The notes under the pieces were generated by a model. It was given only the letters and a program-made list of their open reading frames with translations, was not told the DNA's origin and made no database searches. A stretch of 64,000 nt of DNA from Negaprion brevirostris (taxonomy: Eukaryota), in contig JARDVH010000124.1 in NCBI GenBank assembly GCA_030324005.1, forward strand, positions 55,519,447 through 55,583,446, in the 5' to 3' direction. Within the stretch, counting starts at the first letter, position 1. Each line of letters begins with the position of its first letter. The position numbers and the translations under genes were made by a program. Below, in pieces: positions 814 through 60,048 of this stretch.

Positions 814-893
814 GAATAGATTCGGGAATGCATCACCACGGGTTTTAATCCAGGCAGATTAACAGGAACGCGAAAGGCACATCGCAGGAAATA

Positions 894-957
894 ATGGAAA
901 CAATTGATTTGATGATGAGAATATTATATATTTTTCTTGCTGTGCTAGGTGTTCCTG
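894..957 (+). CDS. GPR139/GPR142-like class A GPCR gene A, exon 1 (METIDLMMRILYIFLAVLGVP plus G, phase 1)
   Basis: ATG at 894, start of TM1, donor CCTG|GTAAGT at 957/958. The 64 nt join in frame to the acceptor at 4606 (G+TT = Val). Confidence 0.9.
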
Positions 958-1759
958 GTAAGTCATTACAGCCACCAACGATATATGAACCTGTTGTCTG
1001 GTTTAACGCTGTGACTGATCCGCATTCTGTAGATACACAGTCATTACTGATATTTGCTTCATACAGACTATCTCTGCGGTTTTATCTCATTTTCGTAACG
1101 TCTAAAAAACACGTTTTGCAATTCACCAGTTTTCTAAATTCCGAACTTATTTTAGTTCTGCATTATTTTGTCAGGGTAAATCTGACCTCACTGAAAATCC
1201 GTTTTTATATCAAAAATAATGTATATATTGGAGAAAAGTAAAAAAAAAAGTCATTAGCTCGAATGGCATTTCTGAATCCACTGACTATGTATTTGGGGAG
1301 TTGCATTAAATTGTATTTAATGAGATTTTGCAACACATTGGATGACTGGTGATTTGATGAGTGTATATTTGTGGGGAGTGTCCTCTCCAAAACCGAGTGG
1401 AATATCTAGCCACAGTGATCATATATATATCAGGTTATGTGCTCATAAAACATTGAACAGACTGAAACGAATGAAATTAAAAACGAGTTTGTTTTCCGTT
1501 TTGTTTCTTCTTGACGAGGGATCCTTTGATCCATGGAGTTGCCTAAGCTTTTTAGGATTGTGAGACAGAATACATTTTGATATTTCGTGAAGAAATTGTC
1601 TAATTATGATGAAGGGAGTCATCTTGATACTGTCCTGAATTGTAAATAACTCTTCCAACACAAGCACAGAAGAACTAACTCCAGCCGTTTAGAAAATTTT
1701 GGTAGGGTTTAACAGTAAAGTGGACTACTATTTAAAAGGCAAAATAATGCAGCACGTTT

Positions 1760-2456
1760 CTCTGCAGAGGAACCTGGGTGTCCTTGTGCCTGAATCACAA
1801 AACATTTGGTTTTCAGGTGCAGCACGAAATTAATAAGACAATTAGGTTTTGTCCTTCATTGCTGGACGGATGGAAAAAAAACAGCGAGATATAAGGTGTT
1901 GGTCAGACTACATCGAGAGTAACATGTACAGTTTATTTTCTCCTTGCTTGAGGAAGGATACACTGGCATTGGAAAGAACATTCACTGGGTTCTATCCGGA
2001 GTTGAGAGGGTTGGCTTTTGCGGACAGATTCAGTAGACTGGGGAGATAGTCATTGGCATTCAGAAGAACGAGAGGAGGTCTTATGAAAATATGAAAGGTT
2101 ATGAAGGGGAAAGGTAAGATAGAAGCAGTTAAGTTGACTCAACTGGCGGGCAAAACTGGAGGACATGGCCTCAAAATAAGATTTAGGAAATAATTGAGGA
2201 GGAATTTATTCACGCAAAAAGTTGCAAATCTGTGGAACTCCCTGCCCAGTGAAACGTTTGAGGCGACCTCATTCATTGTATGTTTTTTAAAGACAAGTAC
2301 AGGTACAGTTTTGAGCATTAAATGAATTAAGTGTTATGGTGAGCGAGCGGGTTAGTGGAGCTGAGTCCACAAAAAGCTCAGCCATGATCTTTTAGAATGG
2401 CAGAGCAGTCCCGAGGGGCCTGATGCCCTACTCCTGCTCCTGGTTCTTATATTCTT
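1760..2456 (+). mobile_element. CR1-type LINE 3' fragment in the gene A intron
   Basis: Degenerate RT C-terminus (…SPCLRKDTLALE…), then TGTGGAACTCCCTGCCC and a 3' tail ending CCTACTCCTGCTCCTGGTTCTTAT typical of CR1. Confidence 0.75.
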
Positions 2457-4199
2457 GTGTTGATTACATCGAACAACACGCTTGCCCTATGTCAGCACAC
2501 GTTGTGTTCTGATTTTAAATTCATTCCTCTTCAAAAAGACATGCAAAGCTTTATCTCTATTGTTCTCGGCTGTGTTATTTTGTTTTTTGTAGCTTTAACT
2601 GATGTGCAAATATGTAGAGCTATTTGCAATCCCAATTCAGGTTCATACTTGGATAGAGCATTCAGAATACGCTATTTCCATCAAAATGCAGCTTCTGACA
2701 CTTAGCGATACATAAATTAACTTACATTTGATGTGCCAACTGTTCACGTTTGATCATTGTTTTTGCTGTGTACCGATTGTCGTTCCTCTCTATTCTCTCA
2801 ACTCCCAATTTGGAAGCTGTCTTTTTACAGCCTGATTGTATTTTCTGAATGGAAATGTTAGAGATCGTGGTTCTGATGCTTGAGGAACACCAGTTTCCTT
2901 ATTCGCATATCTGATAAATTTCCCTTCTCATCCCTACTTCCTGTTTCTTGTTTCTGAAAAGTATAATAATATAAATTCTGCTATTTGCTAGCGAAATGCT
3001 TTGAACTAAGGTTAGAATGTGAATATTATTTACAGATTATACAGGTTTTTTCGGGAAAAAAAACTCATTGGCATCATTTTTGTAATTCGGATCTACAATT
3101 ACCGATTATGATTTAGAGAATTTGATAAAGCATGCCACTACTTGGAATATTTGCTGACTGCTGTTTATCAGGTTCTCAATGTTTATTATATATCTGTTCA
3201 AATTATTCCACCAAAAAGTGACGATTGTTTGACTGTCGTTTAGCTATTTCGGTTGATCGAGTGTTTTATAAATATGAAGCAGCATTTGCCGTTTTCCATG
3301 ATGATATGGTTTTGTTGTGATGTCCAGTGTGCATAAGAGTTCTCCTCATGGAGTAGGGGTTCCCCTATTGAGCAAACAGAGGTTCATTAATAAGGGTGAA
3401 ACAGCGGGAGTTTAATAACCAGTCTCTGCAGTGACCACGGGGTGCTGGTCGCGGAGATTAGAATTGTGTACTGTAGCTGCAGGAAGCAGAAATCCATTGA
3501 CTGTGGAAACAAAAGGGTGCCGGTGGTGAAAATTGGCTGCGGTGAGATCATTACATTCGAGCGAGAAGGAGTAATGGTGTTTTTCTTCCTTCATCCCTGT
3601 GGACATCAAGACATGGAATTCTCTACAGGTATGAAAAAGAAACGCCTCTCTTGGCGAACTGAAGCCAATGATACAGAATACAAGACCCAATACGGAGACT
3701 GTAGACAATACATTGTTCTGGTTCTTAATATTGAGGGATATGACAAGCAAAATGTCATCATGCTGATGGCATGTGGGTTCTCAACAGCCTTATAAAAACT
3801 TTGACCTACCCAGATGCCTTTGACTATAAGACGTTTAAATAGTTAGTCGACTCGGTTTTACCTATGATCCAAAGCCCTATATTTCCCCTAGTGATACGGT
3901 TTGAACAGAGTAGTGCTAACCATTGTGGAGTCTGTGAATGATTATTTGACTGGTTTGTGAACGTTTTCAGAGCACTGCGAACTCGTTCACAGGTGACCAA
4001 TATGTTTTTAGACACATTGGTGTTTGGGATTCAGCGTGACAACTCAAAACATATTATTGCCAAATCCCAACCTCGATAGAAGAAAAATCTTTCAGATAAC
4101 TGCATCACAGGAGAACACAGAGAAAATAATTCAGGTACTAAAAGGACGTGAGATAGTAGTGTTCACCAATCGGGGGAGGGATCGAGTCAAAATTTATTC

Positions 4200-4545
4200 T
4201 CCAATTGAGAATGATTGCTGCCTATCATTAACCAAATTGCCACACTCTAAATGTTTATACATCCCATCCCTAAGAATCCTTTCCAACAACTTCCTGACCA
4301 CTGATGTCAAACAGACCGGCCTATAATTACCCGGTTTATCCCTACTACCCTTTTTAAACAACGGTACCACGCTATTCTCCAGTCCTCTGGGACCTCACCT
4401 GTGTCCAAAGAAGAGACAAAAATTTGCGTCAGAGGCCCAGCAATTTCATCCCTTGTCTCCCTAAGCAGCCAAGGATAAATGCCATCAGACCCCGGGGATT
4501 TATCAGTTTTAATACTGCCTAAAAAGCCTAACACTTCATCCATGA
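4200..4545 (-). mobile_element. CR1-type LINE ORF2 fragment just upstream of the exon 2 acceptor
   Basis: Minus strand translates IKTDKSPGSDGIYPWLLRETRDEIAGPLTQIFVSSLDTGEVPEDWRIA, matching the CR1 ORF2 KSPGPDG…VPEDWR motif. Confidence 0.85.
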
Positions 4546-4605
4546 CAGACAATAAGGATGTGTATTCCCTAATTTGCTTTATCTTCCCATCTCGTTTTTT
4601 TGCAG

Positions 4606-5519
4606 TTAATTTACTTGGGATTCTGATCCTGTCCCGGAGAAGGTGTGGCCTCTCACTCTGCACTACTTGCTACCTCATCGCCATGGGAGCGGCAGATCTG
4701 CTGGTCATTGTCATTGTCATCATCCTGGCCTACATCAATTATTATTATTTTCCTGTGAGTTTTCTGTACATCACCCCTGTCTGTTCTGCTCACGCTATCC
4801 TAATCGGTGCAGCCAGAGACTGTTCTGTCTGGTTCACCGTCGCATTCTCATTTGATCGATTTGTGGCCATTCGTTGCCAGAAATTGAAAGCAAAATATTG
4901 CACTGGCAAAACTGCAGCTGCAATTTTAGCAACGACCAGCATTTTCCTCTTGTTAAAAAATATTCCCTTTTACTTTACAAAGGAAGCTGTGTTTGTATTC
5001 CGCAATGTGGCCTGGGGCTGCACAACAAAGTTAACCTCTTTTTCTGATCCTGGATGGGTTGGATTTCAATGGGTTGATCAGATTATAAATCCGTTGCTAC
5101 CATTTGGTTTAATTCTGTTGATCAACACTCTGACAGTCAGGCACATTTTAGTGAGCAATCGTGTTCGTAAGGGCCTGAGGACTCAATGTAATGGAGAAAA
5201 CACCAACGACCCAGAGATAGAGAACAGAAGGAAGTCAATCATTTTACTGTTCAGTATCTCGGGCACCTTTATACTCTTGTGGTCAATCAATGTTGTACAA
5301 TTTGTGTATATCAAATTTATGGAATTATTTTCCATCAGCAATTCTGCATATATATTACAAGATGTTGGAAATATGCTACTCAATATAAATTGCTGCACCA
5401 ACACTTTTATTTACGTGGTCACCCAATCCAAGTTCAGAGCACAAATCAAGTTGGCTTTGAAATATCCATTCACATCAATTATACAGAGACTCAAACAATC
5501 AGGTAGCTCAAACTATTGA
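4606..5519 (+). CDS. GPR139/GPR142-like class A GPCR gene A, exon 2 (spliced protein 325 aa, intact)
   Basis: Acceptor TTTTTTTGCAG|TT. Motifs VNLL, YLIAMGAADLL, DCSVWFTVAFSFDRFVAI, KYCT, NPLLPF, ENRRKSIILL, NCCTNTFIY, TQSKFR; seven hydrophobic helices; TGA at 5517-5519. Confidence 0.92.
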
Positions 5520-6064
5520 ATGGCAGCGGCTCCATGAACCAGGGAGCTTAATTCACTCTCTGTCATCCCCTGCAGCCAATCAGGTGGATATTCCGGCACG
5601 TAACATTCACCTTGACAACTTCCTCATTTCCCAGCGTCGGACCTGAAGTTACCTCAAAGAAGAATTTTGGAATGCCTCTCAGAATTTCCCAGGAATTGTT
5701 CAACCGGAGACCACCTCAGAAGTGTATATTTCCCTGTAGAATTTGTCTGCGATGAGAACTATCTGACAAAGCAACTTAAACCATGAACAATGAATGGTTT
5801 TAACATTCTCAGAAAATGTTGAAATAAAATGAAACATTCCTAACTTACGTGAAAGTACTTCAAGCACCCGGAGAGTCCCACACTGTACACTCCCCAAACA
5901 CGCAACCAGCAAGGCAATGACACACCAAGACTTGGACAACTATTGAGGGTTCGTGCCCCGATGTTGGAGTCTCCTCTGAGGTCCAAATACAGAAAATTCC
6001 CGACTATGCCTTATATCCGGAAAAAAAAAACAAACTTCTGCTTACTCCAATAGCTGATCCGTAA

Positions 6065-6600
6065 TATCTGATCCCCCAATATCTGAATTCCCAAACATCT
6101 GGCACTCCCAATATCCAAATCATCAAATGTCGGGCACCCCTGATATACGAATGCCCAAATGTCGGGCACCCCGATATCCGAATCCGCAAATATCGGGCAC
6201 TCCTGGTATGCGAATCCCCAAATGTCGGACACCTCTGATATCCGAATCCCCAAATGTCAGACACCCCTAATATCCGAATCCCCAAATGTTAGACACCCCT
6301 GATATCCGAAACCCTAAATGTCAGGCACCCCTGATATCTGAATCCCCAAATGTAAGGCACCCCTGATATCTCAATCCCCAAACGTCAGACATCCCTGATA
6401 TCCGAATGCCAAAATGTCAGACACCCCTGATATCTGAATCCCCAAATGTCAGACATCCTTGATATCCGAATCCCCAAAGGTCAGACACCCCGGTTTCCGA
6501 ATCCCCAAATGTCTGACACCCCTGATATCCAAATCTCCAAATGTCTACCACCCTCTGCTAGCCGAATTTCCAAATGTCAGACACCCAACGTCTGAATCCT
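6065..6600. repeat. Minisatellite, 32-bp unit (CTGATATCCGAATCCCCAAATGTCAGACACCC), about 16 copies
   Basis: TCCGAA recurs at 6241 and 6273 (period 32). Units degenerate toward both ends. Confidence 0.9.
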
Positions 6601-8689
6601 CAATGGTCCAGCACCCCATTGATGTCCATTAATTCCAACGCTTCTCAGTGTTGTCCAACTCTTCCTCATGCACATTTCTTTCTCCCAGGATTTTCTGACT
6701 CCTCCTCTTATGTCTGACCATTGCAGATATCCAGCGGACAGCCCCAATGTTGAACTCCAACCAAAAGCTGGCTGTTCACAAATTAGTCACTGTGATGTTA
6801 GTCACGAGTGGCAAACTACTGTTGTCCTCCACCTTGGAAGTTACAGGCAAATATTGTCAGACAAGTTGAATCCTGAACGTTGACACTATTAAAACCCTGT
6901 TTTCAGAAGTCTCAAGCAGTAAATAAATGAACCACCATCACTGGGGTGCTGTGACCCATGTTGGTGGTATCACTGGACAGGACGATCCCAGGGTGGAACT
7001 GTGTTTCAATGGATGATGATTTTTGTTTTTGTTTTATCAAGCATGAAGGAAAACCAGTTACACAGCCTCTCTTAATATTTAACAACAAAACGTGTCACTT
7101 GTTTGACGTAAGGGGATTCAGAATGGCTTGGAACTAGAGACCATCAAATCAGAGTAGATAATATTGGAGTAGATGAGATACTGAAGGAGCAATGCAGCAT
7201 TCGAAATATTCTGCTTGCATAGAAGTACATATAACCACTATTAGAAAATTTAGACGTGTGTTTTTGAAAGCATATTCCGTAAGAAAAACACATTGTGTTG
7301 TAAACAGCATGATGTTTGTCAGACAAGATGGGGCATAATAAAGTTAAAACAAAAAACTACATTCCTTTAAAAACAATATACTACTGAGGAAAGGGGAAAA
7401 ACATTCTTATCAGTAGTCTCCACACAACCATTATGAATGAGATGCATATTGAACAAAGGACATTGTATGAGGGAGACTGGAAATATCTGGGGACTATGAG
7501 TCAGACCCTTTAAGTCCATGAGGTAAGTACACAATCAAACGTTGCACAGGAATAGGTGTTATTGGCAAAAGTATCAGATCTTTACTTATAATGACTGGCC
7601 GATTCCAAACTGTTCGAAGCAATCCCTTCTGAAAATTACAAAATAGGAGAACGAAGAGTTGATTTCAGAGTTGATTTGACAATCTCGGAAAATAAAGAAA
7701 TCTTTCACCAGAGTAGAGTCTCCACGAGGCTCTGTGCTGGCTGATCCGTATTTAAGATGGACAACCCCTCACCTCGAAAGCCAACATAATACTGAATCTC
7801 TGAAATGCACTCCGATATTAAATATCAAGAAACATCTTACCACAAAATCCTGCTTGACTCATCGTTTATCTTAACACTTATACACATGTTTAAGTTTAAC
7901 ATGATCAGGAAGACATTTGGAGCTACAACCATTTCATCAGCATCCAAAGTCATTAAATGCCATTTTCCCCTCAGAATCCCCCTCCAGCCTAACAGGGATG
8001 TCTTTTGAGTGACAAAAAACTCCACTCCAGGAAATCAGCTTTAGCATCTTCTCGCATAACAAAATATTCACTCAGTGATCCACATTCCAAAATGTGGCAC
8101 ACGATTTCCAACAGACACAGATGACTAGACCATCCAACCACCATTGAGAGCGATACTGTATTTCCNNNNNNNNNNNNNNNNNNNNNNNNNNNNNNNNNNN
8201 NNNNNNNNNNNNNNNNNNNNNNNNNNNNNNNNNNNNNNNNNNNNNNNNNNNNNNNNNNNNNNNNNAACACTTTGTTGTGGTCAAACTCTTAACAGGATTA
8301 TTTGGTGAACACAATTTTTAATGTCAAGAACAATTCTACATTTTTGTTTACAGAGACTGTAATAAAATATGTACTGGACTAGCTTTCAGAGAGTTATTTT
8401 CTAGTAGTTCTCATCCATCGGTCCGTTGTTAATTTTCCTAGTTCCCAAAGTGTATGTCTGTTTTCCAATGAATCAGGCCACTTAAATTCAGACGTAACAA
8501 AATTTATTTTATTTTCACAACGTGCGGGATAATCCAAGATTCCCTATTCGTGTTTTCTTTAGCACTCTCGTCCCCGCTACCTGAAAATTACTCCATTATC
8601 AGTTTTCAGTTGAGATCAGACCTGACAGATGCATCCAAACTCCCTTGCAGTCTCCGGCCCAAACTCATCTGTACTGACTGAAGAGAAGA

Positions 8690-9300: not shown

Positions 9301-9639
9301 AACACAATTCATGTCATCAAAAATTCCAAGCATCTCCACAGATTTTTAGTAAACGGGATCTTCACACCAAACCATGGTGATAGTATAATGAGAAGGATTG
9401 CAAAGTGCCAGGCAGTGAGAGAGGCTTGAGTGACTTACTAATGGACTTCAGAGTTCTTCAGCCAAGTAACTGAATGTTTCAAAGGTAGAGTGATTGAACA
9501 TTGAAAAAAAAAAGAAACTGGATTGAAATAGAGGTGCACTGATACCCTGGAAATTTGAAGGGACTGGTGGTGGATACGCAAATGTTTCCATTGCTGATGG
9601 AGTATGTCCATCCACAGATGTTTGAATGAGCTTCAGGAG

Positions 9640-40329: not shown

Positions 40330-41650
40330 TCCACAGCTTATATCAAAGGATTCGGGCAGGTTCAGAGAGTGGACAAAGAAATGGCAGGTGAAATACAGTG
40401 TGGAAAAAAAGTGAGGTCCTGCACTTTGGAAGAAGGAATGGAGACATAGACTGTTTTCTAAATGGGGAATGCTCAGGAAGTCAGAAACACAAACAAACTT
40501 GAACAGAGAACAAATAACAAGGAACAACTCAGCACGGGAAACAGGGCCTTCGGCCCAACGAGCCCGCGCCACCGTCTTAACATTGTGTTTTTCCTCCTCC
40601 ACCCTTGACCCATGTCTATGCTTATGGTACCACATTGGAAACCAGATTCAGGGGAGTTATTGTTCAAGATTTGCTTAACGTGCAGATTCAGTCGGCAGTT
40701 AGGAACACAAATGTAGTGTCAGCATTCATGTCGCAAGGGCTAAAATACAAGAGACGTGATGTTCTTGTCAGACGGCCCTGGTCAGACCCTATTTGTAGTA
40801 TTGTGAGCAGTTTTGGGCCCCTTATCTAAGGAAGGATGTGCTGGGCTTAGGAAAGGTCCAGAGGAGGTTCACGTGAATGGTCCGAGGAGTTAAGAGTTTG
40901 TCACATGAGGAACTGTTGTGGGTTTGCACTCATCAGAATTTGGAAGGATGAGGAGGCATTCCCTGAGAAACTCCTTTGGATTGCCCCCAATGTTAAGACA
41001 CCCTTTTAAGGTCTGGGACCGAGTCTGTATGTGGAGATGCCAGCGTTGGACTGGGGTAAACACAGTAAGAAATCTGACAACAAACCTGGTGTTGTCAGAC
41101 GTCTTACCGAATCTGTACGCAGTTTTCCAGGTGAGGCCTCAATCACGCCTCCTGCAATTGTGACAAAAGCTCCCAATTTTAAACCCCCAACCCGCTTGCA
41201 ATAAAGCTCAAAATGGTGTTTTCCTCCTTAACTACGTGCTGAAGATCCCTGTTATCTTTTAAGATTCTTGCCCTCAAACCAAAGTCCCGCTGAATTTCAC
41301 TCACCTCCAATTTCTCTCTGTTCAGATAATAATCTGTCCTTTGATTCCTCCTGCCTGACCTCACACTTGCCAAAATGAAACTCCATTTGCCAGGTTTTCG
41401 CCTTGTCAGCTAATCTATCTAAAATCATTTGCAGAATCACAGCTACCCCATCAGAATATGGCCTTGCATCTGTCTTAGCATCATCAGCAAATTTGGTTAC
41501 CTTCCTCAAGGCCATGAATGTAAATTGTGAAACATTGCGGGCCTGCACTAGTTATGTCTTTGCGCTGTGAAAAGGAACTGTTTAACTAAACCTTCTGGTT
41601 TCTATGTAATAGTCAGTTTTCAGTTCACACTAACTCACTTCCTCGAATTC
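40330..41650. mobile_element. CR1 fragments (+ then -) with a Penelope-like fold-back remnant at 41030-41110
   Basis: Paralog of 31860-33200; KFADD motif on the minus strand. Confidence 0.7.
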
Positions 41651-41899
41651 CGTTTCATTTATTTCAGGCACCATCTTTCTGTGAAGTTCCATTTCAAATG
41701 CCCGGATTATAATAACTGAGGTAGACACAGTGTTGTGTTTACTCAGGTAAGCACTAGATTGGAATGATGTAGATAGTTTTGAACCGGGTTTTCTCACACA
41801 AGATCTCGATTGAAATCAAGAGACGATCAAATGACCACCAAATATATTCAGAAACCTGGCCCCTCATCTTTCAGTGATACAGATTCCAGTTTCACCATT

Positions 41900-42895
41900 C
41901 TCTGAGTGCTGGCTCAGATCCAGAGATGCAAATCTGTCCGGACAAATTTTCCATGGCTTGTGACGATTTTAGACTCGCCATCAACTTTAAAAAGGCCAAA
42001 GTCCTGCACCAGCCTGCTCCTCATGCACCGTACACAGAACCCATAATCACAATCAAAGGGCAGGAACTGCAAGCAGTAGACCAGTTCACTTATCCTGGCA
42101 GCATCCTCTCCCAAGCAGTGACTATTGATACAGAATTTAATTGCAGAATAGCAAAGGCAAGTTGTGCTTTTGGTAGACTTCGCTCCACTGGATGGGAGCG
42201 TTGAGAAATCAGCCCAGCAACAAAACTGAAGGTCTACAGCGCCACGGTACTCACTACCCTCCAGGATGCCTGTGAAACGTGGACTGTGTATCGAAGGCAT
42301 GCGAGACAGTTCAATCATTTCCACATGACTTGTCTTCGCAGAATATTACACATCAGATGGCAGGACAAAGTAACAGATCCTGAAGTTCTCTCTGGAGCAA
42401 GTCTACTATCAGTCCAGACACTGCTGATGAGAGCCCAGACCCGGTGGACAGGTCATATCATCCGTATGTCAGACGAGCGCAAACCCAAGTAGCTCCTTTT
42501 TGGGGAACTCTCTGCTGGAAGACGCTCCCATGGAGGGGAGAAGAAACGTTTCAGAGACACACTCAAAGCCTCGCTGAAATCACTGGACATAGACATGGCC
42601 CACCTGGGAAACGCTGGCACAAAACCACCCTACGTGGCGCTGCCTCATCCACAAAGACTGTCAAGCTCACGAAACAAGGTGTATTGCTGAAGCAAAACTT
42701 AAGCACGAACTGCGCAAGTCCAGAACCACCAGTGGAACAACGACAGTGTCTACAGAAGTCTGTCCAGTATGGGCCAGGACATTGCGTGCCGGTATTGGTC
42801 TGATCAGTCATCTTTGGACACACCACAACCAGCCTCAAGATGACTAATGGTGTCAATGCCCTCATCGATGACGGTGGGCGAACAACAACGACAAC
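41900..42895 (+). mobile_element. RTE-clade LINE, 5'-truncated, copy 2
   Basis: Same RT C-terminal motifs; shares the TGA (42202) and has an extra TAG at 42490. Confidence 0.9.
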
Positions 42896-45300
42896 ATTTA
42901 TGTGAGAAAGAACACAGAGAACGATCATGATGTTCATCTGAACTTTGCAGATTGGACCTGCAAACACAATCCAACGAGCCAACTGCAGCAGTGTCGGAGC
43001 ACCGTATCTGATATGTGTTCAAGAAGCAAACGAAAACATCAGGATTTCTTCTACACAAACTCTGTTCTTTATTGTCTCATATGAAGTATATTTTAATGGC
43101 TCCGGGAGAAATGATCTCGCCAACAAGTGATCATGCAATGACATACATTTCACATGTGGAGACACGAGTTCCCACATTGCGTCAATAAACCTTGAGGTAT
43201 GTTGAAAGCCAATAAACACGATGATCCGTGAATGAACAGCAACATTATTTGACAAACCGTACCGAAAAAAACGGTTTGATTTCGACACTCCCTGCTAAGA
43301 AAACATAATGTATTTTTTGTAAAAAGAAAGCCATGCCGACCAATATAAACCAAACGGCTGAAGTAGAACATTACCTTGAGGCAAGCAGAACAACCATTCC
43401 TGAAACGGCGATGCTATCCTCGGCAATACCAGAAAAAAAAAATTATATATGTTTACAATGAAGAACTACCATTTAATCTGAGTGGGAACAAAATATGTTT
43501 TACTCTGGCACCAACACAGATTAATTCCAGAGTTTGGTAGGTGCTGAAGTGCTCACTGAAGGGAGTAAACAGGATTCTTGCAACTCCAAATAATGTTTTT
43601 CTCTGGGTCCACTAAGGCTGATAGCTCTGAGTCCGGGTTCACACTCAGTTACTCTTATGCAACTCAGATTATGTTCATATAATCATATAATCATTTCATG
43701 TCACAGTACAAAGGGGTCATGACAATCTGCCTCACTTGAATTCACAAATGGAAGCGACCTCCCAGAGAAGGGTTGCAAATAGCCAGACACGTAACAACAC
43801 AAAATCAAGGCTGACAGAGCTGGTTTCATCAACACATTCTTAGCACCGGGAACATGCTAGTTTCTGCGAATTAGCAGAATAGTCTCCAGAGACCAGTGGA
43901 ACAATGCCACTACCGTGAGCGATGATCTACACCATATACACGTTACGTATTTTGTTTCTCATATTTCAATATGATGCTCAATGCTTTTTAATGTAGATGA
44001 TGCCCACACAATTGAGAGTACAATTTATTTTCATATCGGCTGCTCAACCTCATTCCGTCCTTCAATCAGATCCTGCGATGCATTGGACTATCTCAATTCT
44101 CCCATTCCAGTCAGGTTTAGAGTGTAGATGAGATCAAATGTGGTCTCTGTTCCATACAGTTTTGCTATTTCTTTCCCCATGATACTGATCTGTATGCACG
44201 ACAGGCGTCCTGACTGATTCGGCCAGACAGTTCGCTGGAAATGTTGTAGTAATCATGGAAACTTTGGGGAAATGGCTCTCTGAGTCTCTCTCGGGCACTT
44301 GGACAGTTTCTTCCCGAATTGACTTGTAACTAAATCACTAATGATGAGGCCAGTTTTCTTTCTGTGTTTGTGCCAATGATTAATCCAAATGGAAATCCAC
44401 TAGAAGAGGTTAGTCAATGCAAATAAATTGGGTTCGGGGTGAAAGACATCAGCACCCTTGAAGCAGAGCTCGAAGCATCTATGGGGAATGTAGCCAATAT
44501 CTTCTAACAACTCGAACACGCGTGCAGGGTAACATGAAACTGGGACTTAAGACCAAACTGCTGTTTAATGACGAGTATATTCCGGACACCAAACACAATG
44601 GCTATGGAAAAGGGGCTACACATAGCGATCTGGAATTTAATTTGGCTTCTGTTCATCTGCTCGCTCGCCATGGGCCTATGCTGATTGAAAATCAATGATA
44701 AATTCAGAACTCTAACAAAGGAAGGACTTGGACTTTGAGTGGGAATTATTATATCGAGACAACTTAGGAGGATGAAGTATGGCCACGGGATGGAAGATTT
44801 TGGTTACATGTGACCTCCTGCCTGGCGAGTCAGCCACAAAAAAAGGCAAACTCGTTAATGCTCCAAACATTTACGAATGCCGAATATACCGATAGAAAGA
44901 GCGAAGTAGTGACACCACGTTTGAGGTGGCGTCCATCATGGCATTTGGCAGTGATTGTAGGACCTTGGGAAAAGGCACCAAAGTCAAATATTAAAACCAG
45001 CCATGTCAATTCACAACGTCAATATCACAGTTTGTGTAGGATCTGCCTCTGAAATACCGGTCCTGACTGACATCAGCAATGGTGCAATAAATTAAGAGTG
45101 TTTAATTAAGCGCATTGCTTCTTCCCTGCATATCATATCTCACAGCTGGAAGGAAGTATTCACGACCGACATATACCAAGTAGACAGGGAAAATTCTCAG
45201 TGACTTCATTGCAGTGTAATATAAGCCTTACATGTGACTAATAGATAAATACCATTCCAATATATTTGTGTTTAGAATGAGGCGCACCATTCCCGCTGAG

Positions 45301-46159: not shown

Positions 46160-46425
46160 TCAGCAACTGGAATTAATGCCATTCTCCCTGGAATCCAGCC
46201 GTGCCTCTGGAGAGTCTGTCACGTCTATTAATAGTTCAAAGAATGAGGGATGGTTCAGGGTCTGAGAGCAACAGACTCGCATTTTACAACATCGGGTGAG
46301 GACCTGAGAACAGTCGATTGAATGGTTCAACAGCGGATCAGAATCTGAGAACAACTGATTGGGAAGTGAAACAAAATGGAGGAGAATCTGAATATGACAG
46401 CCTGGAATGTTGCAACATTGGACAG
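46160..46425 (+). mobile_element. Possible 5' end of an RTE-like LINE (endonuclease start)
   Basis: LNMTAWNVATLD resembles the AP-endonuclease N-terminal 'IGTWNVRTL' motif; short and degraded. Confidence 0.35.
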
Positions 46426-46620
46426 ATCTTTATCCGGGGCTCTTTACGCTCTTTTCAGTTTTTACAAAAACATGTCACCTTTATGGCGGCTCGAATGCAT
46501 CCTAAAAGTGATTCAAGCTGGTTACTATCCATTTCTCGCCATCATTGGTGTACCAAGTAAGTAGTTATAAGCATTTATTATTTCTATTAACAATGTTGAA
46601 CTACAGTGTTTGTGTATTTC

Positions 46621-47415: not shown

Positions 47416-47539
47416 GTCCCATTGTCAGTGACCTATTCANNNNNNNNNNNNNNNNNNNNNNNNNNNNNNNNNNNNNNNNNNNNNNNNNNNNNNNNNNNNN
47501 NNNNNNNNNNNNNNNNNNNNNNNNNNNNNNNNNNNNNNN

Positions 47540-48266
47540 TTTTGATAATTAAAGTTGACCAACTGCCAACCTAAGGAATGTACAAGGTGTGGCATCCATA
47601 GTAGTACGAAATTCGCTGAAATGGCGAACAACAAGATCATGGACTTCCTCCTGTTCTCCATCTCTGGATCGCAGCCATTCCCACAATTCCTCCGAAGACC
47701 CTTGCGCAATCTATTTGATGCCAGAATGTGCCGCACAGTTAAGATATTAAAAACCACAATGAGCACGATTGGTAACAAAGGTGTTAAAATGTTGTCCATG
47801 CACTGGTACACTTTCCAGAAAGGTGAAGTCCAGTAGCTTGATTTTCCAATACAGTACCATGGAACATTGTCAATTACAACAACAGGTCTGTATACGAAAA
47901 ATACAGGGACACTTCTTAAAACGCTCCCCATACAAACCACAGATACAATCACAGTCGTTCCTTTAATGGTACAATACTTCTGTTTAAAATTTTGATAACA
48001 AATTGCAATAAAACGATCAAATGTAAAAGCTGCGGTAAACCAAACAGAACAATCAACAGACACAATAGACAGCACAAGCCTGATAGTACAAACAGGAGTA
48101 ATGAACAAAAAGCTATTAGGCAAAAACATGTGATTAATTCTGTGCATGATCACGTCAGTGATAATCAACATGACATCGGCCACTCCCATGACCGTTAGAT
48201 AGGAAACGATACATTTGGATAGACCACACTTTCCACGAGAAAGAACCACGATGGTCATCAAGTTAA
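47540..48266 (-). CDS. GPR139-like GPCR gene C, exon 2 (TM1-TM6; 3' end lost in the gap)
   Basis: Acceptor TTTAACAG|TT. Motifs GKCGLS, YLTVMGVADV, DCSVWFTAAFTFDRFIAIC, TPLLP, DPEMENRRKSMILLF, FVLLWMP; frame open up to the gap at 47539. Confidence 0.88.
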
Positions 48267-53338: not shown

Positions 53339-53741
53339 GAGGAGAGACTGAGGGATTTGAGGTTGTTTTCGTTAGAAAGAATGCGGCTAAGAGGGGACCT
53401 TGTTGAAACATATAAGATGATGAGGGGTTTAGATAGGGTGGACAGTGATAGCCTTTTTCCTCGATGGAGAAAGCTAGCACGAGGGGACATAGCTTTAAAT
53501 TAAGAGGTGGGAGTTATAGGACGGATGTCAGAGGTAGGTTCCTTACCCAGAGGGTGGTGATGGAATGGAATGCCCTGCCTGCTGCAGTTTTTGATGCGCC
53601 TAGTTTGGGGGCGTTTAAGAGCTCCGTGGATAGGTTTATGGATGGAACGGGATTGGTTTAGGTTAGAGGGTCATTGCTTTTTCAATTGGTCGGCGCGACA
53701 TCGTGGGCCGAAGGGCCTGTTCTGCGCTGTAATGTTCGATG
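53339..53741 (+). mobile_element. Young 5'-truncated CR1 LINE flanked by the direct repeat TTCTATCT
   Basis: EERLRDLRLFSLERMRLRGDLVETYKMMRGLDRVD, TRGHSFKL…FLTQRVVMEWNALP and tail GGGCCGAAGGGCC. Absent from the paralog (empty site at about 20800). Confidence 0.92.
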
Positions 53742-53911
53742 TTCTATCTCGTGCAATGGAGACATTTATGGTTCTATGAATTGGGATGTTACTCCCATCA
53801 CATGAGAAGCCATTACCCCAACAGGATCAAAATCAGCCCACCATCAGTGACACCTCCGCGCCAGGCCCTAAATATTTTCCCTGCTCGTCTGCCGAACACG
53901 AAGATGCGATT

Positions 53912-54101
53912 TCGCATGGCCGATCAACCCAATCTGCACTTCTTTGGACTGTGGGTGTGCTTTGGAGCACCCGGAGGAAATCCACGCAGACACGGAGACA
54001 ACATGCAGACTTCACCCAATGAGATCGGGATTGAAAACCCATGAGTGAAACCCCTGATGCTGTGAGGCAGCAGTGCTAACCACTGTCTCACCGTGCTGCC
54101 C
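53912..54101 (-). mobile_element. V-SINE (HE1-like), paralog of 20965-21155
   Basis: Same reverse-complement head and V domain. Confidence 0.85.
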
Positions 54102-55903
54102 TTATTTTGTTTTTATTAATTTAAAACAATCTGGATTCAGACTGATATTCAGATTGAAATAAATCTTTAAATTAAATTACATCATTCCTTCAAACTCAGC
54201 CCTTGTAACTCCCTGTTTCTCGAAGCTCCAGATAAGGCCACACTGAAAAGCCTTCTGTTTTTGGCCCGACATTCAAGGCTTCTGAAGCTGCATTCATCCT
54301 GATTTCTACTTAACTAGCTCCAGCTGAGAGGCTGTGAAAACCTGTTTCCAATCTGCGATTAAAATTCACTCTATCAAAAGTTCAATGTTTAATTGATTGC
54401 TAAAATAATGAACAAAGTAGATTGAAATTACGCATTTCCTGGATACGGTGAAGAAATCCCTGTCAATTCTGATCTCCTTCATGGAGTCCCATGCTGCCAC
54501 TGGTTTCTGAATTGATTATCACCTCTGATTATTACTGCAGTCTCCCGCCCTCTTGTGTGGAAAATACTCGCTCTGATGTGCAGCCGATTAAAGAATAATT
54601 GGCATTTGGGTTTAGTTCCTGTCGCGAATGCACAGGATTGTATTAAACAAATAACCTACTTTAAGCCCAAAGTTCACCAAAAATATGTTTACCCCCACAG
54701 TGTACAGTAAATCCGCATTAATCCAATCTTATCGGTTCCTTGCACGCCAGCCAAGAATAACAAATATTTATGTGGCACAAGCAGGGACATTGGGCAGTGC
54801 CCATTCATTTCCGAAGTTTCCACACGTGCATTACAATGTTAAACTGTATTTTATGAGATTTTCCAACGGGAATGCCGCAGTGTAGGGATGTGACCTGTCC
54901 CACATGGTTTCTGCTTTGTGATTTCCTGCAGTATTTTCAGTGGTACATTACATTGAAAGTATCGGAGAGGATGTGTAGTGTGTTTGACAGAAAGAAACTG
55001 CCAGTTGAACTGGAATATAATACAAGTACTTGTGTCGTGTTGAACTCATTGTGGAAATGGTTGTAATTCGAACTCATTTTTCTTTTACCGTTTCAGGTCA
55101 CAGTCATCACAAAATTCAGGATGTGACGTCCTCAGACATGTGACTTAAATCAATGGGGAAGCCCATTAAGTTTTCCACAAATATCGCCATGTCAAATATG
55201 CTTTAATCTCACATAAATACATTGTTTTTTTTTTTGCATCGATATGTTATTATTTCATGTTGTGTATTTTGTGAATTCTTATGTCTTTCCTTGTTTTATA
55301 TGAAAGAGTAAACGTTTTGCTGAATTAATAACGAAAACAACATGGAATGCGTATCGAGTATTGCACTGTCCTTATTAAAGTATTTACATTGCATTGCATT
55401 GTGGAACGGAACCGTTATTCTAAGTCAAGATTTGATGCGTTTTTTTTTTGTCAAATGGATTTGAACTTTATTTTGCAAAAGCTCCCTTTCTTATGCCATT
55501 AAATAAAGATTAGGGCGGATAAATACATGGTTTGTTTCCAGAATCTTCATTTGTTATATTCTAAATCGTCATGGAGGCGGGGTGTAGGGGTGGGGGGGGG
55601 GGGTAGTTGGTGGAGAGGGTCCACTGCTTTTCACCAGCAAATAAATACAACCCGATTGCACCCAAGAACTACCCGAAGCACTGGCGACAGTTGAGTAGCG
55701 GGAGGTATGAAGATGTTGGTCAGATTCCCATGTCTCCTTTTCAATTTAATTCTGCAATATTTATGTCCAGTAATCCATTAGTTTTCATTTACTCCGGATA
55801 AGCCCCTGCATTTTCGTCCGGCAATTTTAACCATCCTTCGGTCATTACGGCCATTAAAATAGAAATATTCATTAGCTGAACGCTTGTCATTTTCCCTGAG
55901 GCT

Positions 55904-56900
55904 GTGGAAACTGCCATCCGTACTAATAACATGGATTGGCCAGATAGTAATCACCACCGGAAGAGAACGGTCTTAACGTGTTACAGGAACACTGCTATGG
56001 AGCCCAAACCGACCAAGGTTAAATACGATCTGGTACAGCTACCCCCGCGCCAACCCAGGTCCAGAAAACCAACCCCTCCAGTGTCCGACCCCGAACTGGC
56101 AAGGGCATCTCAAATAGAACCCCAATATAGTGTTCCTGAACGGTTTATGATAGCGGGTATATCACTCACCCGAATGGTCCCACTATTCCCCAGCACGGAC
56201 CACCGTAAGCACCCGTCCCATGGACCAAGCGATCCCTCGTCACGCGGCAGACCACCCCGTCCTGCGCAAGGATGTTTTAATTGCGGCAGTCGAGACGGCT
56301 GGAAACGGGACTGCCCTCAAAACCAGCCTCAGGGGAGACCCCAAGGCAGGAGGGAACACTTTTCCACTCGCAACCCCTTTTCGGCCTTACTTCCCTCACC
56401 CCATATTTTGCCCGTTTTGACTCGAAATCCGGAGGAGGAGCCAGTTGTTGGCTTAACTATACAGGGTGTCGGAATTCCCTTTATGATTGACACTGGGGCC
56501 ACAACATCTACAATATATGTCTCATGTGTACAGCAACATGGGTTTAAACTCTCACCAGCCTCAGTTAATCTTAGCGGGATCACCTGACAGGAAAACGCCT
56601 ACTCTTTAACAGAACCATTGACAGGTATTCTGGCCCTCAAACTTGTGTTACATAAGAACATAAGAAGTCGGAGCAGGAGTAGGCCATCAAGCCCTTCGAG
56701 CCTGCCCCGCCATTCAATAGGATCACGGCTGATCTGAAGTGGATCAGTTCCACTTACCCGCTTTCTCCCCATAACCCTTAATTCCCCTGTCTTCCCCTGT
56801 CTGTATTGTTCAATTTGCCCAGACCCTCAATTTGGTGATTAATTTCGCAGGAAGGATTTTGTTGTGCCTCCTTCATATTGGAATTCTTTGTCTCATTGAG
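55904..56900 (+). mobile_element. Endogenous retrovirus/LTR element gag-pro relic
   Basis: Zn-knuckle-like CFNCGSRDGWKRDCP, protease IPFMIDTGATTS, stop at 56585, then after a CR1-tail insert VINFAGRILLC (GRD-helix-like). Confidence 0.8.
56649..56790 (-). mobile_element. Short CR1 3'-tail insertion inside the ERV protease
   Basis: CATAAGAACATAAGAAGTCGGAGCAGGAGTAGGCCATCAAGCCCTTCGAGCC…. Confidence 0.8.
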
Positions 56901-57069
56901 CGCATTAGCATAAAAAAGTGGGCCTATTAAGCGACAGGCTTGGGTTCAAAGATCTCACAATGATGGACAATTGACCGATCTCCATGAAATTTTACCCGCC
57001 CCCCTCCCCACCCCCCCAACCCGGATCCGTGTTCTGCTGCCGATATTTTGTCATTTATTTAAAAGACAC

Positions 57070-58100
57070 AGATGAGAATGAGGACAGAAGGAGCAGTAAG
57101 TTTGTTGAAGACGCAAAGATTGGCCGAGTTGTTAATAGTGAAGTCGAGTAACTTGGGCTGTGGCAAGACAAAGAACAAACAAAGAACAACACAGCACGGG
57201 AAACAGGCCCTTCGGCCCAACGAGCCCGTGCCCATTGTAACATTATGAGTTCCCCCCCCCCACCCCCCTCATAGAAAAAATGCTCAAATGGGCTGATAAA
57301 TTGCAGGTGGGATTTAACCCTCAAGTGTGTGAGGTGATACACGTTGAAATAAGTAATTTGACAAGAAACGTTACTATGATTGGTCTGATACTGGGAAGTC
57401 CCAACGAACAAAGGGAACTCAGTATGTTTGTCCATCAATCTCTGAAGGAAGAAAGACAGGCAAATAAAGTAGTGAAAAAGGCGTATGATCCACTTGTCTT
57501 TATTAGTTGGCGAACACATTACAAAAACACACAGTTCATGATGGAGTTATATAGGAATTTTGTGAGGACACAGCTGGAGGACTGTGCGGTTCTGGTCGCC
57601 ACATTCTCGAAAGGATGTCATCGAGCTGGAAGAGATTCAGAAAAGATTGAACACGATGTTGCCTCGGATGGACCTGTGCAACATCGTTATAAAGAGATGT
57701 TGGATAGCCTTGCATTCTTTTGTCTGATGCAGGGAAGACTGAGTGTTGATTTGACTGAGGTGTTAACGATGATGAGAAACATGGACAGGCTGGATAAGGA
57801 GCGAATGTGGCCCTGTTGAAGGGTCAGTTACGAGGCAACATGAGATGAAAGTGAGTACTGTGAGCCTCAGGAGTGATTTTAGGAAGACCCTGGACTGCAA
57901 AGACTGGCAGTGTTTTGGAAGTGGGATGTCTCACATCCTTTGAAAGGTACGTGGATGAGTACTTGACACGCCATAACGTTCAAGGCTGAGGACCAAGTGC
58001 TGACAAGTGAGATTAGGTGGGCAGGCTACATCACGTCATGCGTCAATGTAGACTCGAATGCAAATGGGCCTCTTCTGCACTGGAGTATTTTGTGTTTCTG
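57070..58100 (+). mobile_element. CR1 LINE 3' part with a nested ~70-bp antisense tail (57165-57233)
   Basis: SKFVEDAKIG, KWADKLQVGFNPQVCEVIH, LYRNFVRTQLEDC and tail AATGGGCCTCTTCTGCACTG. Confidence 0.8.
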
Positions 58101-58324
58101 TGATTTTATGATTGCGATGTTCCTTCAAAGGAAAATATTTCTACATGGCCAGTCAGTGAAGGAGAGTGAGAGTTTTGATGGATTGCATTGTTACACAGTT
58201 TCTCTGTACAGAGAGGATGAGAATGCAAATAACATACAAAACAATATTTGTTTATTAAGCATTTCTGCAGAGTGAGAGAGGGAATGACAGTGTAGATAAG
58301 ATAAATGCAATGTGCCTCGCCAAG

Positions 58325-58591
58325 CACCTCTGCAGAGAGAGAGAGAGAGGGGGAGAGCGGGAGAGAGAGAGAGAGAGAGGGCGGGGGGCTCGGAAAGAGG
58401 GTGCACTTCACATAAAAGCAATGTCGCTTTACCGAAAATTCCCACAGAGAGATTGAGAGAGCAATTCAGATAACTGCAAAGCATTCATTCTCAAACATCT
58501 CTGTATGGAGAGAAAAAAACTGAGAGACAGTTTGAAAAGTTCAATGGAGCTTTGTCAAGCGTCTCTGCAGAGAGAAAGAGAGAGAGAGGAG

Positions 58592-58623
<32 letters not shown>

Positions 58624-58650
58624 CAGAGAGAGAGAATGCTGAGAGAGAGC
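58325..58650. repeat. (GA)n microsatellites
   Basis: GA runs at 58334-58380 and 58569-58650. Confidence 0.85.
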
Positions 58651-59146
58651 GATCAAATAACTAGGCCAACAATTCTGCTCCCTGACTGGCTGGGCAGGTT
58701 GTCCTTCAGTAACTGGAACTTCCCAATTGGTTGAGCTGGCTGTTTCATAACTGGCACTGCTCCGTGATTCGCTAGGCTGCAATTGGTCTGAAAGCCGAGC
58801 CTGTGACTGGCTCCGGCGCTGCCAGTCAGAGTCACCAGTTGTCTGATTGGCCGAAACTTCAGCTGGTCCATGAGCTGAGCCCGATGATTGAAAAAAAGGC
58901 AGGGATTGACTGGCTGGTCAATATTACATGACTGGCCGGTTGGTGTCCTGATTGCTGGGCACGGCGGTCAGTCAGAATCCCCAGTTGCTGATTGGCGGAC
59001 CTGCTTGTCAGTTTAATTACAGAGACGATTGATTAGCAGACTCTGTTGTCAGTCAATGTGCAACATTGATGATTTGTCAGTTATGAAACCCCTTCTGATT
59101 CGCAAAGACTGTTAGTTATCGATCCTGGTCTCTGATTGGTTGTCAC

Positions 59147-60048
59147 TCAGTTTTGTTTCTTCAGTAATTTATTAATTGATGTAACTGGATATGTCACGAT
59201 GATTCTAATCTGCTCCCTGAATTTGGATTGAGTTGCTGTGTAAATAAATGTATTTGTGCAGCAATTCAAATCCTGCAGCATAAACCCGACTTGTTGAAAT
59301 GTGTAATCAGGAGGAGGGATGTAAATTATTCTTTTCACTCTCGAGTAGAAAAAAAATACAACGTAGACCGACCAGAGGAGAATGAAAGCCCCGGATATGC
59401 TGAAAAGTAAAATCATTGACTTCCTTCTGCTCTCCATCTCGGGATCTCTGTGATTCTTTCCACGACTCTGAGCCTTCAGTGCCTTCCGGACTTTGCTGGT
59501 CACTAAAATGTGCTGGACAGTCAGAGCGTTAATCAACAGGATTAAACCAAATGGGAGCAATGGGGTTAAAACCTTATCAAACCAGTGAAATACAACCCAA
59601 CCACGATCAATGAAATAGCTTGCCTTTGTCTGACAGTCCCACTGCACGTTGCCAATTATCCATTTGGGTTCCACTGTTAAGTACCAGGGGATATTTTTTA
59701 CACAAAGCAAGATGCAAGTTGTTGCCAGAATAACAGTTGCCGTTTTCCTGGTGCAATATTTAGTTTTCAGTTCCTGGCAACGAATGGCCACGATTCGATC
59801 CAAAGAGAAAGTGACGGTAAACCAGACAGAACAGTCTCTGGCTGCAGATCCTAAGACAAGTTTAACACAACATACAGACGTGAGGTGCAGGAAATTCCAT
59901 GGCATGTAATATTTATTAATGTAGTTGAGAATGAGGTTGATGATGATGAAAAGTAGATCTGCTGCTGCCATAGCCAGCAGGTAGCGAGTGGTGCAGGTGG
60001 AGAGGCCACATTTTCCCCGACTCAGGATCACAATTCCCAGTATATTAA
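59147..60048 (-). CDS. GPR139-like GPCR gene D, exon 2 (intact; exon 1 predicted outside the window)
   Basis: Acceptor TTTCTCTGACAG|TT. Motifs GKCGLSTCTTRYLLAMAAADLL, DCSVWFTVTFSLDRIVAI, TPLLPF, DPEMESRRKS, NCCTNTFIY, TQSKFR; TGA at 59149-59147. Confidence 0.92.

Follow-up and report, generated by a model that had tools for sequence, protein, structure and literature searches.

The window, the whole stretch of 64,000 nucleotides analysed here, carries members of a receptor family that is best explained as a repertoire of class A GPCRs that numbers several hundred and extends across chondrichthyans. We privilege the hypothesis that this repertoire is an array for chemical sensing, located most probably in olfactory cells or in chemosensory cells of another kind. 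This reading is probable on the evidence of sequence. Its members are two-exon genes multiplied by segmental duplication and clustered on many scaffolds. Assignment to class A follows from the 7tm_1 domain (the only Pfam hit of genes A, C and D), seven helices, the residues D2.50, D-R3.50, P5.50 and Y7.53, and a predicted structure with pLDDT 90.9.

Genes, exons and relics in the window

Three second exons (A, C, D) and four first exons (A, B, C, E) of the family are found in the 64-kb window, together with relics and duplicated segments:

894-957, + strand: gene A exon 1, 21 codons plus 1 base, N-terminus and first half of TM1; GT donor 958-959
4606-5519, + strand: gene A exon 2, intact; AG 4604-4605, stop 5517-5519; spliced product of 325 aa
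20087-34940: segmental copy of the D region with flank, ~86-93% identity in blocks; carries B and one TM7 relic
21449-21548: N run at the expected site of gene B exon 2; the offset to the D copy shifts 6.7 kb across the run
26214-26148, - strand: gene B exon 1, 22 codons plus 1 base, GT donor
31754-31870, - strand: pseudogene relic, TM7/helix-8 only
40226-40342, - strand: pseudogene relic, TM7/helix-8 only, duplicate of the relic at 31754-31870
46376-46556, + strand: gene E exon 1, 60 codons plus 1 base; long-N-terminus subclass with two N-glycosylation sequons
49659-49590, - strand: gene C exon 1, 23 codons plus 1 base
48266-47540, - strand: gene C exon 2, open through the end of TM6, then N run 47440-47539
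60048-59147, - strand: gene D exon 2, intact

A preliminary description counted at least four genes, but gene A is the sole gene complete within the window. The first exon matching D lies ~1.6 kb past its edge (extended coordinates 65654-65588). B and E are orphan first exons. The second exon of B is absent from the readable sequence of the window and, being expected inside the N run 21449-21548, may be either hidden or deleted; that of E was not found in the readable sequence either and is possibly hidden by the N run 47440-47539. Segment 26894-34940 is repeated at 35041-43410 (88-89% identity). The common phase-1 intron within TM1 was correctly recognised from the start: it follows a GVP/GIP motif, and the window includes both of its splice sites in A and C, just the donor in B and E, and just the acceptor in D. 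Among the joints listed for contigs of four runs aligned to 600-5800, none connects exon 1 to exon 2 of gene A, a result neutral on expression. Also as first described, A is nearer to D (60.9% identity) than to C (A-C 49.6%, C-D 47.4%), and the tree unites A and D in one clade (99/97) with C elsewhere.

Family size and relatives

The cluster was first described as a tandem expansion, but it is not a local one, and the family is spread across the genome. One family motif, which 24 of the 46 intact paralogs carry, has 462 exact matches in the genome versus 1 for the control. A first look gave 1,014-1,279 candidates, and the family is estimated at roughly 900-1,200 loci with relics counted in, numbers that small contigs may inflate by duplicating alleles. 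The copy numbers, clusters, relics and broken loci (two of four in one 40 kb sample) bear out the clustered birth-and-death evolution proposed earlier. They could also reflect genomic drift, in which segmental duplication near scaffold ends multiplies copies mostly without distinct function. Such drift is consistent with the ~90% segmental copies and orphan exons of the window, with stops in 19 of the best 132 rows and with the possible inflation of counts. However, 113 of those 132 rows are stop-free, subfamilies are common to sharks and rays in the tree, and promoter elements are kept amid a randomised background. Overall omega is 0.31 (model M0, 46 paralogs) and signalling residues are invariant; drift is largely refuted because of this purifying selection, and we hold it to be highly improbable.

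NCBI auto-names most members 'probable GPR139', and among solved structures human GPR139 matches best by sequence (E 1.2e-9). The kinship with GPR139/GPR142 claimed in the preliminary description holds for a wider GPR139/142-FMRFamide-receptor group only. Canonical GPR139 and GPR142 genes are present separately elsewhere in this genome, the family shares 27-28% identity with its GPR142, and a clade of the family plus GPR142 is rejected by the AU test (p=1.2e-4). That test used GPR142 sequences only, GPR139 being a partial shark exon that grouped with GPR142 at 99 in an earlier tree. In the strict sense the family thus falls outside the GPR139/142 clade, the outcome named beforehand as counting against the description. 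GPR142 of this genome has an acceptor in the same phase and place as the TM1 intron of the family; neither the GPR142 donor nor the GPR139 intron was recovered, and 20 kb of flank did not yield the 5' part of canonical GPR139. Besides forming a separate clade, GPR139 and GPR142 differ from the family by having one copy each versus hundreds and by Trp/Phe pocket residues that the family mostly lacks; the C3.25-C45.50 pair, found in 46/46 paralogs, is also counted among the differences.

The direct sister of the family is an amphibian/sturgeon orphan lineage (P0239/P0297, support 100/99), whose amphibian proteins share a DPE-x-x-RR motif ahead of TM6. Next comes a coelacanth/teleost/shark lineage (P0231/L025, support 97/98), whose single-copy member L025 has the same intron but lacks the family promoter element upstream (score 1.3). 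Unlike the family, both orphans have one close match per species and are strongly conserved. They may correspond to the rows 'Orphan 139-like' and 'NMOGPR', listed as unclear in PMC5207463. The family thereby brings to light two conserved orphan receptors of non-mammals that the GPR139 name had concealed. By sequence and tree, with other class A families outside the latter, the nearest relatives are GPR139-like orphans, amphioxus GPR139 and invertebrate neuropeptide-type receptors. The careful tree leaves out 26 of 63 rows, long or partial ones among them, and includes no OR, TAAR or chemokine receptors. Descent from OR, TAAR, V1R or V2R was rejected on the Pfam 7tm_1-only assignment and the GPR139-like nearest kin, in this tree without OR or TAAR. 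Nematode Srw receptors are a chemoreceptor expansion out of FMRFamide-type receptors. Pfam Srw (PF10324) is assigned to most GPR142 proteins and neighbouring Atlas clusters; the Srw expansion is independent of the family, and A, C and D have no Srw match at E<=0.001.

This ancestry could mean that the family kept a neuropeptide-receptor role, recognising diversified endogenous peptides in neuroendocrine, reproductive or sperm signalling. The invertebrate neuropeptide-type receptors are its deeper relatives (tree, and PMC8514136), the amphibian sister proteins are 66-74% conserved across amphibians, as expected with an endogenous ligand, and the N-terminus of one subclass is long and in many cases glycosylated. 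Fixed endogenous ligands would nevertheless not be expected to give rise to copies in the hundreds, relics and an omega above 1 at pocket sites, and we give this role a small probability.

Extra GPR139 copies were reportedly noted in the white-shark genome paper. A description of the expansion was not found in the literature searched, with the white-shark and 2018 shark-genome papers and the supplement of PMC11979771 outside coverage. The main texts of PMC9826928 and PMC8455134 contain no 'GPR139' or 'receptor 139', that of PMC11979771 no 'GPR1' and that of PMC10116579 no '139'; the 24 supplements of PMC8455134 contain no GPR139. The family was probably missed because of its automatic name and because analyses of family size may exclude those with more than 100 copies (PMC12361510 is an example). 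Cartilaginous fishes have been described as comparatively poor in GPCRs (PMC8455134), a view that several hundred pocket-diversified receptors overturn whatever the function of the family.

Ligand face and selection

The cytoplasmic and activation face is conserved (D2.50, D-R3.50, F6.44, W6.48, Y7.53 and the C3.25-C45.50 pair), with mean consensus frequencies among the 46 paralogs of 0.87 at the bottom of TM3 and 0.83 in ICL1. ECL3 (0.36), the top of TM5 (0.55) and ECL2 (0.59) vary as previously noticed, and so do the tops of TM6 (0.48) and TM3 (0.54), ICL3 (0.56) and TM4 (0.59). Of the motifs given earlier for conserved intracellular loops, exact matches occur for CGLS in 42/46 paralogs, for KYCT in 20/46 and for DPExExRRKS in 24/46. 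TQSKFR (16/46) lies at the TM7/helix-8 junction rather than in a loop, and is not visible in gene C because the N run 47440-47539 cuts that gene.

Diversifying selection at pocket residues is found in part of the family. The M8a-M8 LRT is 13.3 for the 46 paralogs and 38.3-39.5 for the A/D clade (18 paralogs), where 10% of sites have an omega near 2; the simulated null for this clade gave a maximum LRT of 5.6 in 30 simulations versus 39.5. The M0 likelihood of the selection run equals that of IQ-TREE. All 12 sites with posterior >0.9 map to the extracellular half (Fisher p=1e-5) and include 2.61, 2.65, 3.28, 3.29, 45.51 and 7.36, in the pocket and ECL2. The C clade, with 10 genes, shows no positive selection (LRT 0), and neither does the final third of the A/D alignment (LRT 1.3). 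Birth and death together with a diversifying ligand face favour a sensory or immune-type repertoire over a neuromodulatory receptor, in line with the preliminary description.

The same description proposed aromatic amino acids as ligands. GPR139-type sensors of this kind would be compatible with a sensory role and would name its ligand class. The four residues required for Trp/Phe activation of GPR139 are F3.33, H5.42 (5x43), W6.48 and N7.39 (7x38) according to PMC5430874. Mapped by Ballesteros-Weinstein counting and alignment to GPR139, W6.48 is present in 44/46 paralogs, but F3.33 in 6/46, H5.42 in 3/46 and N7.39 in 7/46; gene A retains N7.39 and D7.36. As three of the four residues are mostly absent, amino-acid sensing is unsupported. 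The GPR139 match among solved structures and the phase-1 TM1 intron common to GPR142 speak for such sensors, the low identity to GPR142 and the rejected clade against them, and we regard them as quite unlikely. D3.37 and D5.42 are retained in 34/46 paralogs while adjacent positions vary, so that the ligands are probably often cationic. In fish TAARs, Asp5.42 binds amines (PMC4695389), a residue shared with the family.

Promoter and expected cell type

The genes share a core promoter in which a TATA box lies ~90 bases upstream of the ATG, preceded at ~15 bases by a TCYC-N4-GRGA dyad and still further upstream by a forkhead-type site; in one subfamily TAATT adjoins the dyad. Its copies in the window are:

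783-800, + strand: gene A dyad (O/E-like), 111 bases before the ATG, score 9.9; TATA box 807-812
26311-26328, - strand: gene B dyad, 114 bases before the ATG, score 13.6
26680-26965, - strand: extra promoter copy ending at an N run, 89% identical to the B and 93% to the D promoter; element 26703-26720
46200-46217, + strand: gene E dyad, 176 bases before the ATG, score 10.3

The extra copy is probably what had been reported as a fifth promoter. Gene C is preceded by a TATA box and a weak dyad (score 2.7) with TAATT before it. De novo search over 35 non-redundant promoters, which as paralogs are not independent samples, gave a top motif with LL 150 versus 56-85 in three controls and its best site at -120 to -92 in 27/35; background identity is 0.61, near the shuffled 0.59. 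The O/E consensus (PMC3247239) is matched within one mismatch in 14/35 promoters versus 0/34 upstream and 5/35 intron sequences (shuffle mean 2.9, maximum 6), and exactly in just 1/35. Read symmetrically, the two halves of the dyad are 4 bases apart, against 2 for EBF. The homeodomain-like TAATKR occurs in 24/35 (shuffle maximum 23). TAATT plus dyad occurs in 4/35 (shuffle mean 0.27), a lead only, since the pattern was written after viewing the sequences. AP-2, CSL, octamer and RFX readings were not enriched. Mouse OR promoters combine TATA, O/E-like and homeodomain-like elements (PMC3247239, PMC5608512), an arrangement that the family promoter may share.

The main rival to the chemosensory reading is immune or barrier surveillance of a formyl-peptide- or Mas-related-like type, in which leukocytes, mast-like cells or epithelia would sense microbial or damage peptides under pathogen-driven evolution. 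Formyl-peptide and Mas-related receptors are lineage-specific GPCR expansions with pocket selection, found in immune and sensory cells. EBF factors are active in many neurons and also in B cells (EBF1), and positive selection on the ligand face fits immune sensing equally well. An NF-kB-like reading of the 3' half of the dyad (12/35, shuffle mean 6.6) is just over the shuffle maximum of 10. Fold search returned peptide and chemokine receptors unseparated, without singling out GPR139 (ranks 9 and 39). Yet O/E enrichment is ~5-fold over shuffles versus ~2-fold for NF-kB, and ~1,000 loci, typical of odorant repertoires, are far above immune GPCR families. Formyl-peptide and Mas-related repertoires are likewise much smaller, with no specific sequence link found. 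The tree, which holds no chemokine receptors, groups the family with orphan and neuropeptide-type receptors, and chemokine receptors reach only E 6e-4 by sequence. We consider immune sensing unlikely.

In the favoured chemosensory array, a candidate EBF/Olf-1 factor would read the dyad, with the consequence that all members would be on in one cell class and each in few cells. Candidate ligands would be small molecules or peptides carried in water, many of them probably cationic. All members would use a common G protein, with Go/TRPC2 expected if they act in shark olfactory neurons. Olfactory receptors are described as very few in cartilaginous fishes, with about 34 V2Rs and 4-9 members in each remaining family of the catshark; the layer of catshark olfactory neurons is almost continuous, while the receptor probes tested there mark 0.45-5.94 cells per mm (PMC10116579). 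Most of these olfactory neurons would therefore be without an assigned receptor. A narrower proposal, that the family provides the main odorant receptors of cartilaginous fishes and so adds another olfactory family to those of vertebrates, has a somewhat less than even chance on sequence grounds. A neuropeptide-type orphan would have been recruited independently, have grown to hundreds of genes under an EBF/homeodomain promoter resembling that of mammalian OR genes, and be expressed as one or few receptors per neuron in this majority, for which a receptor is not known. The catshark brain-and-olfactory library, with no GPCR in its top 50 genes (PMC11979771), weighs against the chemosensory reading. 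The view of sharks smelling with only a few dozen receptors becomes directly testable.

The OR, TAAR, V1R/ORA and V2R/OlfC repertoires share with the family clustered birth-and-death evolution, a variable pocket and, in its main subclass, a short N-terminus. They differ by a separate origin, the family having an intron in its coding region, and by V2R-like promoters: 17 V2R/OlfC-like genes of this genome have the O/E site within one mismatch in 4/17 over 400 bases, none at fixed spacing.

Receptor genes and relics of the window

Six-frame translation and tblastn located three long second exons in the window, those of genes A, C and D, all of one receptor family and with 7tm_1 as their only Pfam match. 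First exons of the family end in GVP/GIP, with a GT donor in phase 1.

Receptor features of the window (second exons located by six-frame translation and tblastn)
894-957, + strand: gene A exon 1
4606-5519, + strand: gene A exon 2
26214-26148, - strand: gene B exon 1
26680-26965, - strand: extra promoter copy
31754-31870, - strand: TM7-only relic (pseudogene remnant)
40226-40342, - strand: TM7-only relic
46376-46556, + strand: gene E exon 1, with a long N-terminus
48266-47540, - strand: gene C exon 2, stopping at an N run at 47540
49659-49590, - strand: gene C exon 1
60048-59147, - strand: gene D exon 2

Gene A (325 aa; predicted structure with seven helices, mean pLDDT 90.9) is the only gene complete inside the window. 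Exon 1 of D lies about 1.6 kb outside it, and the readable window sequence holds no exon 2 of E. Pairwise identity is 60.9% for A-D, 49.6% for A-C and 47.4% for C-D. The region around B duplicates that of D as a segmental copy of ~90% identity. At the N run 21449-21548, exactly the expected place of B exon 2, the offset of their alignment shifts by 6.7 kb; this exon may be hidden in the N run or deleted. In the flanks on scaffold C124 (extended coordinates -83051 to 89607) two further genes are intact, at -25034 (+) and 81764 (-). These flanks also hold two second exons truncated by gaps, more first exons and a third TM7 relic.

An open frame at 55880-56584 (+), read by eye to have a zinc-knuckle and an aspartic-protease-like motif, is typical of an LTR retroelement remnant. 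Degenerate LINE-type reverse-transcriptase fragments occur at 33404-34329 and 41878-42800, inside the duplicated block, and at 4216-4536, a high-copy fragment inside the gene A intron.

Ancestry and size of the family

The preliminary description had read the cluster as a tandem expansion of GPR139/GPR142-like receptors. The cluster is real and far larger than was noted; the name is wrong. Human GPR139 is the best solved-structure match, a weak one (E 1.2e-9), and the genome carries its canonical genes elsewhere: a GPR142 (L038, G000:C137:11457521-11460550) 93% identical to a named shark GPR142, to which A, C and D show 27-28% identity, and a GPR139 (L037, G000:C128:53358362-53361391) represented by its 3' part alone, adjoining an N run. 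In a careful tree of 37 rows, the 19 family rows form one clade (97/95) whose closest sister is a receptor conserved in amphibians and sturgeon (100/99), followed by a coelacanth/teleost/shark receptor (97/98); GPR142 and amphioxus relatives fall outside the family and these sisters. A 63-row tree has the same shape, the partial GPR139 grouping with GPR142. Forcing the family and GPR142 into one clade was rejected (p-AU 1.2e-4). The TM1 intron is common to the family, GPR142 and the coelacanth-type gene, which argues that the ancestry they share is real, but older.

The amphibian and sturgeon sister (P0239, P0278-P0297), an orphan GPCR conserved among frogs, salamanders, a caecilian and a sturgeon, bears the automatic name GPR139 but forms a separate lineage; among 119 scored matches this genome has no close counterpart (best 35%). 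A second GPR139-like orphan, L025/L045 (G000:C143:45654039-45657988), is 63% identical to coelacanth P0231 and has teleost and frog relatives. This genome gives one close match to it, and family members are present on the same scaffold. The groups "Orphan 139-like" and "NMOGPR", marked unclear in a review table (PMC5207463), may be these sister lineages.

With A as query, the genome yielded 1,279 candidates; the 130 that were scored include 132 matches of at least 50% identity on dozens of contigs. By our count, which is biased to the best matches, 113 of the 132 have no stop. Four protein queries returned 1,014-1,279 candidates each. Exact matches in the genome to a TM7 pattern of eight codons number 462, versus 1 for the reversed control; with 24 of 46 intact paralogs carrying it, this suggests about 900 loci. 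Such counts take in relics and possibly allelic contigs, so that several hundred intact genes is our estimate. A protein search found 1,671 relatives; among the 120 listed, the 118 that have a name all belong to sharks, and almost every one bears the automatic label "probable GPR139". Skates, a stingray and a chimaera have members too; the counts given here are for Negaprion brevirostris.

Scaffold ends are close to many of the clusters, at a distance of no more than a few Mb and often less than 1 Mb (C124, C128, C137, C140, C143, C167, C182, C185, C188 and C110), the window itself being 32 kb from the C124 end; those on C84 and C121 are internal. A long-first-exon subclass (E at window 46376-46556, L050, L064, L065, L067, L123, L130, L134) includes several first exons made of repeated ~11-residue units, with frequent N-glycosylation sequons and, in some, the promoter dyad described below kept at greater distance from the ATG.

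The 2019 white-shark genome paper reportedly mentioned GPR139 in some tens of copies, as possible candidates for olfaction, so the expansion as such may already be published, albeit without its size, origin, selection and promoter. Literature searches found no published description of it, nor did term searches in the main texts of shark papers and the supplements of PMC8455134; the accessible text of the evolution section of a GPR139 review does not mention it (PMC12208981). The whale-shark paper describes cartilaginous fishes as relatively poor in GPCRs (PMC8455134). In one analysis, families with more than 100 copies were dropped (PMC12361510).

Selection and the ligand pocket

We aligned 46 intact second exons from top-ranked search loci and sampled clusters, and fitted site models with our own code (fixed relative branch lengths, gridded omega; M0 likelihood equal to that of IQ-TREE). 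The pattern of variability previously described holds across these paralogs, and the tops of TM3 and TM6, TM4 and ICL3 also vary; D2.50, C3.25, D3.49, R3.50, C45.50, P5.50, F6.44 and Y7.53 are invariant. Overall omega is 0.31. Diversifying selection is detected in the 46 paralogs taken together (M8a vs M8, LRT 13.3) and in the 18 genes of the A/D clade, the subgroup of A and D (LRT 38.3, with 10% of sites at omega ~2; M1a-M2a, 47.7), and not in the 10 genes of the C clade (M8a vs M8). Null simulations (30 alignments) gave an LRT of at most 5.6 versus 39.5 observed, and thirds of the alignment, each with its own tree, gave 23.5, 18.8 and 1.3. The 12 sites with posterior >0.9, including 2.61, 2.65, 3.28, 3.29, 45.51 and 7.36, all belong to the extracellular half, which makes up 114 of the 288 columns (p=1e-5). 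That the copies merely drift appears very improbable.

Amino-acid sensing, the earlier proposal, fares poorly. Of the four residues required for GPR139 activation by Trp/Phe (PMC5430874), W6.48 is found in 44 of 46 paralogs and the other three are mostly absent (F3.33 in 6, H5.42 in 3, N7.39 in 7), and aromatic amino acids are quite unlikely to be the ligand class. D3.37 and D5.42 are each kept in 34 of 46 and, since Asp5.42 is an amine contact in fish TAARs (PMC4695389), we infer that the ligands would often be cationic.

Promoter design and proposed role

Of 70 first exons, 63 had readable upstream DNA; 52 of these were short-class and 35 were kept (<70% identity). Among these 35 the median identity is 0.61, close to that of shuffled sequences (0.59). 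De novo motif discovery ranks a dyad, TCYC-N4-GRGA, first (LL 150 versus 80 in intron, 85 in upstream and 56 in shuffled DNA); in 27 of the 35 promoters its best site falls at -120 to -92 relative to the ATG, a short distance ahead of a TATA box. Members have a common promoter, and it is constrained. The dyad is missing upstream of the single-copy sister gene L025.

Mouse OR promoters are enriched in O/E, homeodomain and TATA elements (PMC3247239). With at most one mismatch, the O/E (EBF/Olf-1 type) consensus printed there for mouse occurs in 14/35 promoters versus 0/34 upstream and 5/35 intron segments (shuffle mean 2.9, maximum 6). One subfamily has TAATT immediately before the dyad; in a post hoc comparison this resembles the Lhx2/Ebf composite found in mouse OR enhancers, where the Ebf half is reported to be degenerate (PMC5608512). 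Several results speak against an O/E reading: one promoter of the 35 matches exactly, the symmetric spacer of the dyad is 4 bases as against 2 in O/E sites, an NF-kB consensus occurs in 12/35 promoters (shuffle mean 6.6, maximum 10), and 17 V2R/OlfC-like genes of this genome have a different promoter architecture. An EBF-type factor is a candidate reader of the dyad.

The constant signalling face, the pocket diversifying under selection, the clusters that together hold hundreds of copies, relics among them, and the single promoter design, hallmarks of the repertoire proposed in the preliminary description, make us favour, with some reserve, a sensing array: each receptor would detect different outside molecules, and all would report via one pathway in one cell class. 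Immune or barrier sensing is an unlikely role for the family, and signalling by endogenous peptides seems highly unlikely. For such an array the nose is the best candidate site. In the catshark, olfactory neurons form a nearly continuous layer, all Go- and TRPC2-positive, whereas the receptor probes tested, a putative co-receptor included, labelled 0.45-5.94 cells per mm (PMC10116579); most of these neurons would therefore be without an assigned receptor. This family could conceivably be the main odorant-receptor family of cartilaginous fishes, a reading we hold at somewhat under even confidence.

Two more elements are conserved in the family promoters between ~180 and 120 bases ahead of the ATG: one is a forkhead-type TGTTTGTT site, the other ATGTTGYAA. 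Loci L170-L185 (G000:C163:2.3-2.4, 5.8-6.8, 38.2-38.5 Mb) are clustered first exons of class C receptors and encode signal peptides; by motif and clustering, these 16 loci and L187 look V2R/OlfC-like.
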